Assembly (NCBI GenBank): GCA_018061865.1
Contig: JAGOTH010000001.1
Location: forward strand, 4,249 to 68,248
Origin: Minisyncoccota bacterium
GTDB taxonomy: Bacteria; Patescibacteriota; Minisyncoccia; Phycocordibacterales; UBA9973
Direction of reading: 5' to 3'
Length of the DNA stretch: 64,000 nt
Positions 8,730 to 44,286 of this stretch are shown here, one piece after another (position 1 is the first letter of the stretch; each line of letters begins with the position of its first letter). Under the pieces are notes generated by a model. It saw only the letters and a program-made list of their open reading frames with translations, was not told where the DNA came from and ran no database searches. Made by a program: the position numbers and the translations under genes.

Positions 8730-8873
8730 GAGTAGTCTAAGGGCTTTTCAAAAAAAACCCAAAAAGCCTTACAAAACAAGGTCAATAATACAAGTAAAAC
8801 AGACCTTTGGGAATGGGCTCATAAACCACCAAAAATGGTAAAATGGATAGGCATTAAAAGATTAAAATCATAT

Positions 8874-9428
8874 ATGAAATTAGACAAACAAAACAAAACA
8901 TACCTGGGAATTGCCGGGGCAATTCTGGTAATAATTGCAATAATCTTTGTTGGTAAAAAAGATGTAGAAGCCCCAACACCACAAGAGCCAGAAATAACAG
9001 AAGAAGAGACCACAGACACTCTAACAAGTGGTTATACTTTTGATGTTCCAGCTCTAGTTATCAACGAAGGAGATGTGAAAAGCTGTGCTTTCTCAATTGA
9101 AACTCCAAAAGTATTGAGCAAAGTAACTTTCCCTCTTACAATCACAGGAGAGATTGTGCCAAGCCTATCTTGTCCTTGGGTTAAATTCGAAGGAATGGGA
9201 GGAACAATCAAACTCAAAGATATAGACGGGAATGTTATCGCTGGACCAGTTGGATTCTCTGCTGGAGAGGAATGGATGAACACAAACCCATTCCCTGTTT
9301 CTGTAACAATTGATTCAGTTAGTAACGATTTTTCTGGAGATATAATTTATGTTTATCTTGAAGACGCAAATGCTGCCGACTCAAGCGAAAGCCCAACAAA
9401 ATATTATACTTTCCCAGTAAAGTACTAG
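8874..9428 (+). CDS. membrane-anchored Gmad2-like immunoglobulin-fold protein (putative)
   Basis: N-terminal TM (LGIAGAILVIIAIIFVG); C-terminal VKFEGMGGTIKLKD...DIIYVYLED resembles the Gmad2 fold; start taken at internal MKLDKQ. Confidence 0.4.
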   Translation: MKLDKQNKTYLGIAGAILVIIAIIFVGKKDVEAPTPQEPEITEEETTDTLTSGYTFDVPALVINEGDVKSCAFSIETPKVLSKVTFPLTITGEIVPSLSCPWVKFEGMGGTIKLKDIDGNVIAGPVGFSAGEEWMNTNPFPVSVTIDSVSNDFSGDIIYVYLEDANAADSSESPTKYYTFPVKY

Positions 9429-9438
9429 TCTCACATTA

Positions 9439-9469
9439 AAAAATCCCCCATAATCGTGGGGGATTTTTT
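9439..9469 (+). terminator. rho-independent terminator
   Basis: AAAATCCCCCATAATCGTGGGGGATTTTTT. Confidence 0.65.
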
Positions 9470-9483
9470 AATTTTTAAAACAG

Positions 9484-9746
9484 AGCCAACGATGGGAATT
9501 GAACCCATGACCTCACCCTTCGCTTACACCTCTTCTTTTTGTATACAAGAGGGCTAGACTGTATCTTATCCGATTCAAATCGGATCTCTTGTCAGTCGTT
9601 CGGGCCTCTTTAAAAGATGCCACGGTCTTGTCCTAAAATTAATCAGATTTTAACCGTTATTCGAGATTCAAATCGATATTACTATCGAATTGGGCGGGGA
9701 ACGGCGCTCCACCATGGGTGTGCTCTACCAACTGAGCTACATTGGC
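9484..9746 (-). tRNA. tRNA-Thr(GGU) interrupted by a group I intron between anticodon-loop positions 36 and 37
   Basis: Exon 1 (9746..9711): GCCAAUG UA GCUC AGUUGGUA GAGC A CACCC AUGGU. Exon 2 (9520..9484): AA GGGUG AGGUC AUGGG UUCAAUU CCCAU CGUUGGC U. The joined exons are near-identical to E. coli tRNA-Thr(GGU); anticodon loop AUGGUAA. Confidence 0.75.
9521..9710 (-). ncRNA. group I self-splicing intron (190 nt) in the tRNA-Thr anticodon loop
   Basis: 5' exon ends in U and a possible IGS GCCGU pairs with exon AUGGU (U.G at splice site); R-like GAACGACUGACAAGAG and S-like AAGAUACAGUCUAGCC form P7 GACUG/CAGUC; P8 hairpin AUCCGAUUUGAAUCGGAU between them; GNRA-capped hairpin UCGAUA-GUAA-UAUCGA; P9 hairpin CCUCUUG...AAGAGG; terminal G before 3' exon AA. 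Confidence 0.65.
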
Positions 9747-9774: not shown

Positions 9775-10377
9775 TTACCTTAGATCATCAATCTTAGAAA
9801 TAATAAAATCTCTAAGTTTTTTATTATTAAAATACACGGTCAAAACTCCATATTTTACTTTATTTTTATATGTACCTTTTTTCCCAGATATTGATATTAT
9901 AGTTTTATAAAATTGCTTATCTGAGATTGATAGTTTTTTCATCCAAAATTTTTTTGCCTCATCTTCTGATATGTCGTTAAAAAGCTGTAATCCAAATCTT
10001 AATTTTGACTTTTTTATTTTAAAAAACTTAATAAGAAAGATGACGAAGACCTTTATTAAATCTGGATCGGTATTACCTAATCTAACAGAATGAGGAGATC
10101 TTTTTGTCCCCTCTCCCCAAAATAAACCCAACCCTAAGCCAAATAAAAAATAATCTTCTGGTGTTTGGGGTAAGGCTACTTCGAAAGGGTCTCCCTTCGG
10201 GTTCCATTTAAGATAGATAGATTCTCCTATTGTTCTTTTCTTTATGTTGAATTTTTTGAAAAGATAATTTATCCCTGTTTGAGAATAACCTAACTTTTCT
10301 GCAATTTGAGAAACAGAAAATTTTTTATCTAAATAAAGACTTTCCAAAAGTTCTTTTTTAACTAAAACTCTTTTCAT
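9775..10377 (-). CDS. LAGLIDADG-like homing endonuclease candidate with N-terminal HTH
   Basis: Very AT-rich 200-aa ORF 28 bp upstream of the intron-containing tRNA-Thr on the same strand; motif FLFGLGLGLFWGEGT resembles a single LAGLIDADG; N-terminal SQIAEKLGYSQTGINYLFKKF helix-turn-helix. Confidence 0.4.
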   Translation of the reverse strand: MKRVLVKKELLESLYLDKKFSVSQIAEKLGYSQTGINYLFKKFNIKKRTIGESIYLKWNPKGDPFEVALPQTPEDYFLFGLGLGLFWGEGTKRSPHSVRLGNTDPDLIKVFVIFLIKFFKIKKSKLRFGLQLFNDISEDEAKKFWMKKLSISDKQFYKTIISISGKKGTYKNKVKYGVLTVYFNNKKLRDFIISKIDDLR

Positions 10378-10414
10378 ATACTATAGATATTATAGTATAT
10401 TAGTTTTCTACTTT

Positions 10415-11338
10415 CTACTCTTTTTCAATTTCCTTTAGGTATTCTATCGGTGTTAACCCACTGTCTTTTATTTCTTGCGCTGTCTCTACTCCAACATAAC
10501 GATAGTGCCACGGTTCGAATTTGTATCCGGTTACTTCCTCTTTTCCACTCGGGAAGCTCATAACAAAACCATACTTGTGAGCATTGGCCTGTAACCACAA
10601 ACCCTCCTTTGTGTCTTTAAATTTTTCAGACAAAACTCCACCCAGAGAAGAGCTGGAGAAGTCTACAGTTGTTCCGAGTTGATGCTCAGAGTGTCCGGCT
10701 TCTGCTACTCCACGAAGAGCGCTTGGTCCTTCTATTTTTAAATACAAATCAACTAGATATTTTTGAATTTCAAATTTTCTAAATCCGGAAGTAACGATTA
10801 TGTTCACATCAGAGTTTTTTGCATCCGTTAGCATCAAAACTAGAGGATCATAAGTCTCAGCAGAGACACAGATTATTCCGTTGGTTGAAATTGTGGAAGG
10901 CAGAAATTTCAAATCTTTTGGAACAAATCCTAAAGGCAAGCCTTCTTCCCTACTGAGGGGGAAAATTGTGAATGGATCCTCTTCTGAAGAAGAAGTTGGG
11001 CATAATTCTTTTTTCAAGTTTTCTGTTAGAAGAGTTTTTGTTTGAGAAGAAACCTTTCCAGTTTCAGGTAATGAATTATTCTTTTCAAAAAGTTTTAGAG
11101 CTGATTCTGTTTTTGGACCAAAGATTCCATCTGACTTTATGTTTTGCTCTGGCATAACAGACGCGAGATATGTCTGAACTGTCTTGACCTCAAATCCTGA
11201 ACTGCCTCTTTTTACTTCATACAAGAATCCCCCACGAGCTCTCCAAGTGTTCAGGGCTGACATATCAGGAAAATAGGCAAGCATTGTTGCCGGCAGAATA
11301 AAGCCTGTTATTAAAAATAATATTAGAAATTTCTTCAC
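10415..11338 (-). CDS. VanY/LdcB-like D,D-carboxypeptidase (peptidase M15B) with N-terminal peptidoglycan-binding domain
   Basis: Signal/TM anchor; PG_binding_1-like GFEVKTVQTYLA...DGIFGPKTESALKLF; M15 motifs SEHQLGTTVD and EPWHYRYVG. Confidence 0.75.
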   Translation of the reverse strand: MKKFLILFLITGFILPATMLAYFPDMSALNTWRARGGFLYEVKRGSSGFEVKTVQTYLASVMPEQNIKSDGIFGPKTESALKLFEKNNSLPETGKVSSQTKTLLTENLKKELCPTSSSEEDPFTIFPLSREEGLPLGFVPKDLKFLPSTISTNGIICVSAETYDPLVLMLTDAKNSDVNIIVTSGFRKFEIQKYLVDLYLKIEGPSALRGVAEAGHSEHQLGTTVDFSSSSLGGVLSEKFKDTKEGLWLQANAHKYGFVMSFPSGKEEVTGYKFEPWHYRYVGVETAQEIKDSGLTPIEYLKEIEKE

Positions 11339-11395: not shown

Positions 11396-11574
11396 ATGGC
11401 GCAGTCGACGGGAATCTCACATCGTCACAAGTTCCTCTTTGAAAACCTCTCGGTTTTCAATACTTTCCTCCACGGGGAAACGGAAGTTTCCCCGACCCCC
11501 TTCCCGTTCGAGCCCCTTTTCTGTACTAGAAACAAAAAGATGCCAAAAAATAATTTTGACATCTTTTTGTTTTG
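11396..11574 (-). repeat. ~180-bp tRNA-3'-end-associated element, copy A (downstream of tRNA-Asp)
   Basis: Terminator hairpin, then 65-nt core GGGGUCGGGGAAAC-UUCC-GUUUCCCCGUGGAGGAAAGUAUUGAAAACCGAGAGGUUUUCAAAG, then GUGAGA, then duplicate of the tRNA-Asp 3' end (UUCCCGUCGACUGCGCCA, with CCA) at 11397..11414, then a second terminator hairpin; paralogous to 39342..39528. Confidence 0.6.
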
Positions 11575-11648
11575 CGCAGTCGACGGGACTCGAACCCGCA
11601 ACCTCCCGCGTGACAGGCGGGTGCTCTAACCAGTTGAGCTACGACTGC
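11575..11648 (-). tRNA. tRNA-Asp(GUC)
   Basis: GCAGUCG UA GCUC AACUGGUUA GAGC A CCCGC CUGUCAC GCGGG AGGUU GCGGG UUCGAGU CCCGU CGACUGC G. Confidence 0.85.
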
Positions 11649-11660
11649 ATATATTACTTT

Positions 11661-11760
11661 TTCAACTCAATTTTATTCCATTTCGCAACCCGCCTGACGG
11701 GTGCTCGCTATAGTCTAACTTGAGTTGAGCTCCGCCAAAGGCGGACAAGTACGACTGCAT
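11661..11760 (-). pseudogene. decayed tandem copy of tRNA-Asp flanked by 11-nt direct repeat
   Basis: minus-strand GCAGUCGUA...GCUCAACUCAAGUUAGACUAUAGCGAGCACCCGUCAGGCGGGUUGCG retains acceptor/D-stem/anticodon-stem remnants of tRNA-Asp with insertions; tacgactgcat repeated at 11640..11650 and 11750..11760. Confidence 0.4.
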
Positions 11761-11841
11761 TTTTTTCTTTTTCAACTTAGGCAAAATACCTAAGTTAACG
11801 ATTTGCATTCTACCAAAAAATGGCAAAAATGAAAACCGCTG

Positions 11842-11914
11842 TGACGGAGGTGGGGGTTGAACCCACGACCCCAGGCTTATGAGTCCTGTGCTCTACCAAC
11901 TGAGCTACTCCGTC
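11842..11914 (-). tRNA. tRNA-Met(CAU), elongator-type
   Basis: GACGGAG UA GCUC AGUUGGUA GAGC A CAGGA CUCAUAA GCCUG GGGUC GUGGG UUCAACC CCCAC CUCCGUC A; G1-C72 paired, C11:G24. Confidence 0.8.
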
Positions 11915-11964
11915 GTTCTTTCGACTTCAGTGGCATGATTTGCGACATGTCACGTGTCGAAGTG

Positions 11965-12035
11965 TTGCGGGGTCTGGAATCGCACCAGAGCCTCAAGGTT
12001 ATGAGCCTTGCGAGATACTTCTTCTCCACCCCGCT
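11965..12035 (-). tRNA. tRNA(CAU) with initiator-like features and non-canonical D- and T-loops (tRNA-fMet or pseudogene)
   Basis: AGCGGGG UG GAGA AGAAGUA UCUC G CAAGG CUCAUAA CCUUG AGGC UCUGG UGCGAUU CCAGA CCCCGCA A; unpaired 1:72 (A.A), A11:U24; but no GG in D-loop and G at position 55. Confidence 0.35.
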
Positions 12036-39267: not shown

Positions 39268-39341
39268 CCACCCTTAGCTCAGTTGGTTAGAGCACAGAGC
39301 TTATACCTCTGGGGTCCTTGGTTCGAATCCAAGAGGGTGGA
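39268..39341 (+). tRNA. tRNA-Ile(UAU)
   Basis: CCACCCU UA GCUC AGUUGGUUA GAGC A CAGAG CUUAUAC CUCUG GGGUC CUUGG UUCGAAU CCAAG AGGGUGG A; anticodon UAU. Confidence 0.8.
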
Positions 39342-39528
39342 CATTATAAAAAACTCAAGACATATTTGTTTTGAGTTTTTTATAATTTTACTTTGAATTG
39401 GATTCGAACGGGAAAGGGGTCGGGAAAACGGGAGTTTTCCCGTGGAGGAAAGTATTGAAAACCGAGAGGTTTTCAAAAATTACGAACAGAATGTGAGTAA
39501 TTTGTGAGACTCCAAGAGGGTGGACATT
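39342..39528 (+). repeat. ~185-bp tRNA-3'-end-associated element, copy B (downstream of tRNA-Ile)
   Basis: Terminator hairpin, TATAAT, 65-nt core GGGGUCGGGAAAAC-GGGA-GUUUUCCCGUGGAGGAAAGUAUUGAAAACCGAGAGGUUUUCAAA, GUGAGA, 17-nt duplicate of the tRNA-Ile 3' end plus flank (ccaagagggtggacatt at 39329..39345 and 39512..39528), second terminator. Confidence 0.6.
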
Positions 39529-43901: not shown

Positions 43902-44286
43902 TGGTGGAGATGGGCGGAATTGAACCGCCGTGCAAAGAGGAACAAAATAATAATCTACATGTTTAACAAATTTTTTTGTTTTAAGTTAGAGTGATATATA
44001 AATTTGTAAAAATCACTCTCCCCGATCTCATTTTCTCGACTCTGTGTTGAGCGACACAAAATCATAGTTTCTATTTATAACACCTTACTTCTTCCAAGAA
44101 ACCAGAAAAAAGAGGCGCTAACCATAGCTTAAAAGCTTACGCTAGAGCGAAGGCCTTACTTGCGTAAGGGCTCTCCACTGATCCAAATGTTTTTGCATTT
44201 GAGATTTTGTATAGTTTTTAACGGGCTCCATACTCCCCGACATGCAACTATTCTGAACAATCTCCCTGTCGATGCCTAGCATCCCC
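43902..44286 (-). ncRNA. ssrA: tmRNA (ssrA)
   Basis: 5' GGGGAUGCUAGGCAUCGACAGGG; 3' GGCGGUUCAAUUCCGCC CAUCUCC ACCA with G3.U70 wobble in the acceptor stem; candidate tag ORF ending ...KAFALA-UAA; terminator hairpin immediately 3'. Confidence 0.8.

Follow-up and report, generated by a model that had tools for sequence, protein, structure and literature searches.

A tRNA-Thr(GGU) gene probably split by a group I intron, and the LAGLIDADG-like reading frame beside it, in a Minisyncoccota genome

Two transfer RNA (tRNA) halves that lie 190 nucleotides (nt) apart raise the question of whether they belong to one gene and, if so, what separates them. The halves in question are on the minus strand (9484-9746) of the window, the whole 64-kb stretch of contig JAGOTH010000001.1 from a Minisyncoccota bacterium that was analysed here. 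An earlier reading of the bare sequence (hereafter, the original prediction) took them for a tRNA-Thr(GGU) gene interrupted by a group I intron. We consider it very probable that the region is a tRNA-Thr(GGU) gene in which a group I intron of 190 nt, containing no open reading frame (ORF), separates U36 from A37, and that this intron belongs to the "divergent" tRNA-Thr family of Patescibacteria. The group I identity, and with it the original prediction, is supported by the comparative structure of the insert, the rule of a U before the intron and a G at its end, a weak match of the core to the Rfam model RF00028, and a published survey of Patescibacteria introns (PMC13011429).

The split gene and its homologues

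Both halves were recovered in the sequence where the original prediction had placed them. The split-gene pattern, which requires the two exon halves at a spacing of 171-231 nt, has one match in the window and had none in 100 shuffles. When the exons are joined, ARAGORN calls a canonical 74-nt tRNA-Thr(ggt) with a perfect cloverleaf, in agreement with the identity proposed earlier, and the joined sequence is 73-78% identical to the intronless tRNA-Thr(GGU) genes found at the equivalent genomic position in relatives. Only with the 36/37 boundary is the 5' junction preceded by U and the 3' junction by G, so the insert begins after U36 and ends with G as had been suggested.

A second tRNA-Thr was not found in the window, which covers 64 kb of the genome. 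The original prediction had noted this as well and took splicing to be essential, which is more than 64 kb can support; further Thr isoacceptors are expected elsewhere in the genome, and a tRNA-Thr(CGU) adjoins in related loci. No second copy of the intron was found in the window by nhmmer with the family profile. The single window match (9512-9718) has an E value of 3e-46, which is circular because the window sequence is itself a row of the profile. No match to phage genomes was obtained for the region by blastn.

Homologues of the intron were collected from two sources. A scan of 185,579 GTDB species genomes for the split-gene pattern yielded 29 loci, which contain two intron families at one shared site. 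Eleven of these loci hold introns of the window type (186-230 nt), in Minisyncoccia, Saccharibacteria, Nomurabacteria, Paceibacterota, and other metagenome-assembled genomes, and the remaining 18 hold Azoarcus-like introns (204-229 nt) in Alphaproteobacteria. The second source was a set of 80 metagenome loci of the ORF that neighbours the tRNA gene (described below). Their tRNA genes were called by a test of stem and acceptor complementarity and then, for the remaining loci, by ARAGORN -i, and the window-type intron is present in 62 of the 80. The family alignment, A2, comprises 48 distinct intron sequences with an identical insertion site from Patescibacteria genomes and metagenomes.

Intron structure and splice sites

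The structure model consists of P1-P1a-P2-P3-P4-P5-P6-P7-P8-P9.0-P9, with 57 pairs and with P7 crossing P3 (Table 1); all counts refer to the 48 sequences of A2. Paired cells amount to 90.0%, and to 31.7-44.8% in slid controls, whose 3' partners were shifted by 1-3 columns. The model has a covariation score of 0.451, compared with at most 0.121 for the slid versions, and it was reached by 0 of 500 shuffles. Changes on both sides occur in 38 of the 57 pairs. The conserved P3-P9 core, with its P3/P7 pseudoknot around P4-P6 and P8, is the arrangement by which a group I intron is recognized, and the P7 pairing, the P8 and P9 hairpins, and the GUAA tetraloop named in the original prediction are all present.

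The invariance of P4 and P7 is expected of a catalytic core. The invariant GACUG and CAGUC strands, together with the AAGAUA of J8/7, suggest that P7 would bind guanosine. P3 is CCC/GGG in most sequences and CUC/GAG in the window, where U-A takes the place of C-G as a compensatory change. The window copy keeps all of the approximately 60 family-invariant columns and departs from the near-invariant ones only by this U-A in P3 and by a U.G in P5.

Table 1. Features of the locus and of its immediate surroundings in the window
Feature	Position	Strand	Basis or remark
tRNA-Thr(GGU) 5' exon GCCAATGTAGCTCAGTTGGTAGAGCACACCCATGGT, positions 1-36, anticodon G34 G35 U36 at its end	9711..9746	-	sequence; ARAGORN on joined exons
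Probable group I intron, 190 nt, GGAGCGCCGT...GTGTAAGCG, without internal ORF	9521..9710	-	RF00028 20.9-21.9 bits, family alignment, pair counts
P1 extension hairpin P1a, contains GCCGU	9696..9710	-	alignment columns 10-13/23-26 swap GC and AU
Internal guide sequence GCC, P1 with anticodon GGU (9713-9711), U36.G wobble at 5' splice site	9693..9695	-	GC 48/48, GC 48/48, UG 47/48
P2 hairpin, GUAA tetraloop L2 at 9682-9679	9669..9692	-	9/10 pairs change both sides
P3 5' strand CUC, partner GAG 9586-9588	9663..9665	-	97.9% paired
P4 (ACGGUU/GACCGU) enclosing P5 (9648-9630)	9622..9657	-	P4 invariant except U.G to C-G; P5 3/5 pairs change both sides
P6 hairpin	9603..9621	-	5/6 pairs change both sides
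P7 5' strand GACUG (R element), partner CAGUC 9557-9561	9593..9597	-	invariant 48/48; crosses P3, giving the pseudoknot
P8 hairpin AUCCGAU-UUGA-AUCGGAU with CC:GG step, candidate receptor of L2 GUAA	9568..9585	-	7/7 pairs change both sides
J8/7 AAGAUA and P7 3' strand CAGUC (S element)	9557..9567	-	family-invariant; best RF00028-aligned part
P9 hairpin	9529..9552	-	94.8% paired; 5/6 pairs change both sides
P9.0 3' strand GC (partner GC 9554-9553), then terminal G 9521	9521..9523	-	96.9% paired; terminal G invariant
tRNA-Thr(GGU) 3' exon AAGGGTGAGGTCATGGGTTCAATTCCCATCGTTGGCT, positions 37-73, without encoded CCA	9484..9520	-	sequence; ARAGORN on joined exons
Hairpin AAAAAAUCCCCCA-CGAUUA-UGGGGGAUUUUUU after the tRNA, flanked by A-run and T-run	9438..9469	.	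sequence; Rfam leader models matched as terminator
ORF, 200 amino acids, N-terminal helix-turn-helix and LAGLIDADG-like domain (GLGLGLFWGEGTK), ends 28 nt before the tRNA	9775..10377	-	profiles, family alignment; possible link to the intron
Promoter-like site TAGAAA-17-TATAAT upstream of the ORF	10389..10417	-	consensus match

The proposed 5' splice site lies at P1, in which U36 at 9711 faces a G at 9695. P1 would be a 3-base-pair (bp) helix built from the anticodon and stacked on P1a, which is close to the arrangement in Azoarcus. The guide named in the original prediction, GCCGU (9705-9701), is probably wrong; it was rejected as the conserved guide because this stretch forms the variable P1a hairpin loop across the family, in which the conserved guide is the GCC at 9695-9693. 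At the 3' end, the two P9.0 pairs covary (GC/GC, AU/AU, GU/AC), with both-sided changes in 6 and 11 sequences. This covariation lies beside the terminal G and so locates the 3' splice site without recourse to the tRNA.

These boundaries bear on a different reading of the gene. Default ARAGORN makes no call at the locus, and ARAGORN -i reports the unspliced locus as tRNA-Arg(gcg) i(35,190), which would make it a tRNA-Arg(GCG) interrupted at 34/35 by 190 nt. Apart from this call, the evidence runs the other way, and we give the tRNA-Arg reading a negligible chance. The 34/35 boundaries would place a G before the 5' junction and an A at the end of the intron, contrary to the group I rule, whereas P1 pairs with GGU and the P9.0 covariation holds the terminal G at 9521. 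The body of the tRNA contains G1-C72, C2-G71, and U20 instead of A20, which we take, from E. coli, to be identity features of Thr rather than Arg. The intronless genes at the equivalent position beside homologues of the neighbouring ORF read GGT. Furthermore, the identical ARAGORN miscall has been documented by Nakagawa et al. (PMC13011429).

A tertiary contact can be proposed for the tRNA-Thr(GGU) intron from the joint variation of L2 and P8. A GNRA loop forms L2 in 47 of the 48 sequences, and the loop type varies in step with the P8 sequence. GUAA, GCAA, GCGA, and GGAA loops go with CC:GG in P8 (22 of 23), and the GUAA and AUCCGAU/AUCGGAU of the window obey this tetraloop-receptor rule. GUGA loops go with CU:AG (3 of 3 by eye; the script scored only the absence of CC:GG). 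With GAAA loops, P8 contains the exact CUAAG...UAUG in 5 of 22 sequences and, in a by-eye reading, variants such as CUACG, CUAAA, and CUUAA in most of the others. This pattern indicates that L2 may dock into a receptor in P8. Tetraloop-receptor rules of this kind are reportedly those of Michel and Westhof and of Costa and Michel. In the Azoarcus intron, a GNRA L2 loop docks into P8.

Several observations weigh against the identification as a group I intron that splices at 36/37. The model was derived by hand from the same 48 sequences, so its advantage over the slid controls is partly built in, a bias that does not affect the both-sided changes in the same way. P1 has 3 bp, and the fixed anticodon leaves it no possible covariation. 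The window copy has a weak P5, in which 3 of the 5 pairs of the family model are standard (one of the 3 a U.G), and it carries an A x G mismatch in P6 and, in the family register, an A x C mismatch in P1a. RF00028 scores 20.9-21.9 bits on the insert (E ~0.002 on a short local stretch) against a gathering cut-off of 50, and it gives no match at the locus at the gathering score. The splicing validation of Nakagawa et al. 2026 concerned only Asn and Asp introns at 35/36 (PMC13011429).

The RF00028 match is nevertheless specific, weak as it is. Its best-aligned part is AAGAUACAGUCUAG against the consensus AAGAUAUAGUCuaa, that is, the J8/7-P7 core (consensus AAGAUAUAGUC). As a check on the original prediction, this model recognized the core of the insert, and the score stayed below the 50-bit threshold. 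The gathering score was reached by 0 of 8 introns of the Patescibacteria type and by 2 of 6 scanned alphaproteobacterial Thr introns (57.5 and 56.4 bits), a split between the two types that reproduces the "divergent" label.

The mismatches in P1a, P5, and P6 might also mark the window copy as a dead tRNA-Thr, disrupted by a decayed intron or an unrelated insert and no longer spliced. Because the count of tRNA-Thr(GGU) genes covers the 64-kb window only, an intact copy could lie outside it. We judge a dead gene very improbable. The invariant columns are kept, the change in P3 is compensatory, and the exons form a perfect cloverleaf. An identical ORF with the same genes around it is present in several independent assemblies, as compared at the level of the ORF. 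According to Table S2 in PMC13011429, published complete Paceibacteria with the intron have one tRNA-Thr fewer by tRNAscan-SE, implying that in those genomes the split gene is the only GGU copy.

Known relatives and the proposed splicing route

The original prediction was aware of no described tRNA-Thr(GGU) host, which is outdated. A survey of 95 complete Patescibacteria genomes (Nakagawa et al. 2026, mSystems, PMC13011429) lists group I introns at 36/37 of Thr(GGU) in GCA_001029635.1, GCA_016700375.1, and GCA_030583745.1 (its Table 1). These introns were undetected by RF00028, a known blind spot of that model, and detected by gpI_bact_tRNA.cm of tFind; ARAGORN called two of the three Arg(GCG) 34/35. 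In that paper, the label "divergent group I introns" goes back to Castelle et al. 2018, and a classifier and a tree place the Patescibacteria Thr introns on a long branch within subgroup IA.

The window intron is a further member of this published class, and the assembly of the window lies outside the three published genomes. It shares with the published introns the Patescibacteria host, the tRNA-Thr(GGU) gene, the 36/37 site, the miss by RF00028, and the miscall as Arg(GCG) 34/35. Like them, it has a size near that of other short group I introns and no internal ORF. The published description contains no covariation-based structure. The likeness to the window intron, as compared here, is one of host, site, and tool behaviour.

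The intron class itself is thus already in the literature (2018-2026). What the present analysis adds is more members of the family, a second unrelated lineage in Alphaproteobacteria, and the linkage to the neighbouring ORF. The 48 homologues provide a covariation-backed structure and the L2-P8 rule for a family that has so far been labelled only as "divergent". Default ARAGORN and Rfam at the gathering score fail to see the split gene, as does tRNAscan-SE according to the literature; genomes that carry it therefore seem to have no tRNA-Thr(GGU), and estimates of their completeness are lowered.

Subgroup IA introns have P7.1/P7.2 between P7 and P3, and IC3 introns are compact, with L2-P8 and L9-P5 contacts. 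In the window, J7/3 consists of ACAA only, so P7.1/P7.2 are absent. Its periphery is IC3-like, and the L2-P8 contact is supported; the published placement of the family is IA. The IC3 introns of tRNA genes, such as that of Azoarcus tRNA-Ile(CAU) (Reinhold-Hurek and Shub 1992), share with the window intron the site in the anticodon loop after U36, a length of approximately 200 nt, and the lack of an ORF. A very short P1 that uses anticodon bases and the absence of P5abc are also common to both. The cores differ, being CGAACGACUGACAAGGG / AAGAUACAGUCUAG in the window and GGUGUAGAGACUAGACGG / AAGGGAUAGUCC in Azoarcus. In addition, the window intron is below the RF00028 threshold, and its Patescibacteria relatives were placed in IA by Nakagawa et al.

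The Alphaproteobacteria provide IC3-like introns at the same site. In all, 18 loci (L001, L004-L006, L008, L011-L013, L015, L016, L020-L026, and L029; Acuticoccus, Rhodospirillaceae, Parvibaculaceae, Rhodobacteraceae, and others) share with the window the 36/37 position of tRNA-Thr(GGU), the U before the 5' junction, and the terminal G. Their introns belong to an Azoarcus-like lineage and are unrelated in sequence to the Patescibacteria family. Two unrelated intron lineages thus appear to share the 36/37 site of tRNA-Thr(GGU). More generally, the tFind preprint (Williams 2020, bioRxiv 10.1101/2020.01.27.920355) describes an increase in intron-bearing tRNA types from 4 to 21.

The splicing route that we propose is carried over, by analogy, from the standard group I pathway. 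The anticodon G34-G35-U36 would pair with the guide GCC (9695-9693) to form P1, with the U36.G wobble at the cleavage site. P1 would dock on the core of P3-P8 and P4-P6, braced by the GUAA of L2 in the CC:GG step of P8. A free guanosine at P7 would attack the bond 3' of U36. The terminal G (9521), placed by P9.0, would then occupy the guanosine site, and U36 would attack the 3' junction. Ligation of U36 to A37 would give a normal tRNA-Thr(GGU), with a predicted junction of CCCAUGGU followed by AAGGGUGAGG.

The neighbouring reading frame and its surroundings

The ORF directly upstream of the tRNA gene encodes a protein of two recognizable parts. For the N-terminal part, Pfam HTH_23 matches 22 of 30 family members, PHROGs 8446 and 7545 (annotated "HNH endonuclease") match residues 2-55 with an E value of 1e-5, and the NCBIfam match covers the helix-turn-helix only. 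The second part contains the motif GLGLGL(Y/F)WGEG(N/T)K, which was equated with LAGLIDADG by inspection. Within it, E89 is invariant (30/30), and WGEG is present in 85 of 85 sequences. Foldseek against the PDB, a profile search against PDB sequences, and sequence profiles gave nothing significant for this domain, and a comparison with BFVD gave weak matches to phage endonucleases. Based on its sequence, we describe the domain as LAGLIDADG-like and the protein as a putative nuclease.

The ORF family numbers at least 1349 proteins, every one annotated as hypothetical, and the best 120 listed share 49-61% identity with the query. Its homologues carry the names Paceibacterota, Azambacteria, Zambryskibacteria, and Parcubacteria. 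An identical ORF is found on several ENA contigs and on contig JAGOQA010000004.1 of GCA_017991735.1.

The ORF is closely linked to tRNA-Thr(GGU). The ORF-bearing loci are the window, L003, L014, L017, L019, and L030-L109, and 78 of the 80 metagenome loci among them are evaluable, the contig ending at the other two. A tRNA-Thr(GGU) gene with the intron directly follows the ORF in 62 metagenome loci, and an intronless tRNA-Thr(GGU) does so in 14; in these 76 loci, the tRNA starts -8 to +95 nt from the end of the ORF. At one further locus (L070), the ORF lies between tRNA-Thr(GGU) and tRNA-Thr(CGU) and is followed by the latter, an arrangement also seen at L014 of the genome scan. In L009 and L027, the spacer from tRNA-Thr(GGU) to tRNA-Thr(CGU) has no ORF. 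At the last of the 78 metagenome loci (L098), a tRNA starts after the ORF and is cut short by the contig end. Some annotated ORF homologues read into the tRNA and end in ...ANVAQSVERxHGKS.

Presence of the ORF and presence of the intron can be separated. Loci without the intron are dispersed across the ORF tree and retain intact ORFs, and at 6 of the 11 genome loci the intron is present but no ORF adjoins it. One of the genome loci, L002, has a doubtful 18-residue similarity (E 0.47) to the C-terminus of the 200-residue ORF just before its tRNA-Thr(GGU). The existence of loci with the ORF and no intron, and of loci with the intron and no ORF, indicates that the ORF goes with the tRNA gene and not strictly with the intron.

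This distribution also bears on whether the intron splices on its own. The insert could have a group I fold and yet need a protein in order to splice; the most plausible candidate would be the product of the adjacent LAGLIDADG-like ORF, as a maturase whose gene lies outside the intron. Some LAGLIDADG proteins, such as I-AniI, are maturases. The divergent core (21-22 bits with RF00028), the short P1, and the position of the ORF directly beside a tRNA in all 78 evaluable loci, 62 of which have the intron, fit such dependence. Set against them are the intact ORFs beside 14 intronless tRNA-Thr(GGU) genes, dispersed in a tree whose members all keep WGEG (85/85), and the 6 genome loci with the intron alone, where L002 offers at most a doubtful 18-residue remnant. 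Moreover, a paralogous family adjoins uninterrupted tRNA-Met genes, and the tertiary contacts of the intron look complete. We therefore regard protein-dependent splicing as improbable. A role of the ORF as a maturase only was downgraded in view of the intact ORFs at intronless genes and the paralogues beside uninterrupted tRNA-Met. The idea that the intron protects the tRNA from cleavage by the ORF product was likewise downgraded, given the 14 intronless loci with an intact ORF and the junction of one of them (L080, CCCATGGTAAGGG), which is the same as that of the intron-bearing genes.

The paralogous family, of 226 residues (hhalign probability 98.7%), lies directly upstream of tRNA-Met(CAU) in L002, L003, and L010. 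The regions with paralogues or LAGLIDADG genes are 1937-5311 in L002, 2303-3261 in L003, and 1560-2389 in L010, and L002 has a clear LAGLIDADG_3 ORF between tRNA-Met and tRNA-Asp. The tRNA clusters of these genomes thus seem to collect endonuclease-like genes.

Free-standing endonucleases located by tRNA genes or by ORF-less introns are known from T4 SegB and from the "collaborative homing" of F-CphI with the psbA intron and of mobE with I-TevIII (PMC3984707, PMC2790892). The pattern of the ORF resembles that of such free-standing homing endonuclease genes in phage tRNA clusters. Common to both are an endonuclease-like ORF between tRNA genes and beside an ORF-less intron, and a presence of ORF and intron that varies independently. 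In contrast to the phage cases, the present genes are in a cellular genome and form a large, well-conserved ORF family of putative nucleases. By this analogy, the ORF might encode a protein that targets the tRNA-Thr region, either a free-standing homing endonuclease or its domesticated descendant, and the intron would be carried along by co-conversion, an explanation that we put forward only tentatively and hold to be rather unlikely.

If it were true, it would explain how an ORF-less intron became common in Paceibacteria, and it would weaken the published inference that tRNA introns have low mobility in the phylum for want of endonuclease genes. Patescibacteria tRNA clusters would then be landing sites for endonuclease genes, as in T4-like phages. 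The ORF is not mentioned by Nakagawa et al. (PMC13011429), and our literature search found no report of it, though one may exist; its near-invariant linkage to tRNA-Thr is apparently previously unreported. The linkage offers a lead on how ORF-less introns persist or move in highly reduced genomes.

The ORF and the precursor tRNA are plausibly co-transcribed, ending at the hairpin 9469-9438. This arrangement is suggested by the promoter-like site upstream of the ORF, the hairpin after the tRNA, and the lack of a promoter-like site on the minus strand between the ORF and the tRNA, where none was found. The hairpin lies between the convergent tRNA-Thr and an ORF at 8835-9428 and resembles a two-way terminator; it was not listed by a simple terminator scan.

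The window has a G+C content of approximately 38% and encodes FtsE/FtsX, PrfB, GatA, LigA, pseudopilins, and a prepilin peptidase. Its genes, together with the homologues, indicate an origin in Paceibacterota/Minisyncoccia, within the Patescibacteria. A cluster of tRNA-Met, tRNA-Met, and tRNA-Asp (11574-12035, minus strand) lies approximately 2 kb upstream, and a gene for a VanY-like carboxypeptidase stands between it and the ORF with the split tRNA gene. In L070, the order Met-Met-Asp-Thr(GGU)-ORF-Thr(CGU) is contiguous, which suggests an ancestral tRNA cluster that was later broken by insertions. Two other RNA genes of the window stand apart from this cluster. One is a standard one-piece transfer-messenger RNA (43902-44286, minus strand; 127 bits) with the tag AKTFGSVESPYASKAFALA. 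The other is a tRNA-Ile with the anticodon UAU (39268-39342, plus strand), which is uncommon in bacteria, where AUA is usually read by a lysidine-modified CAU tRNA.

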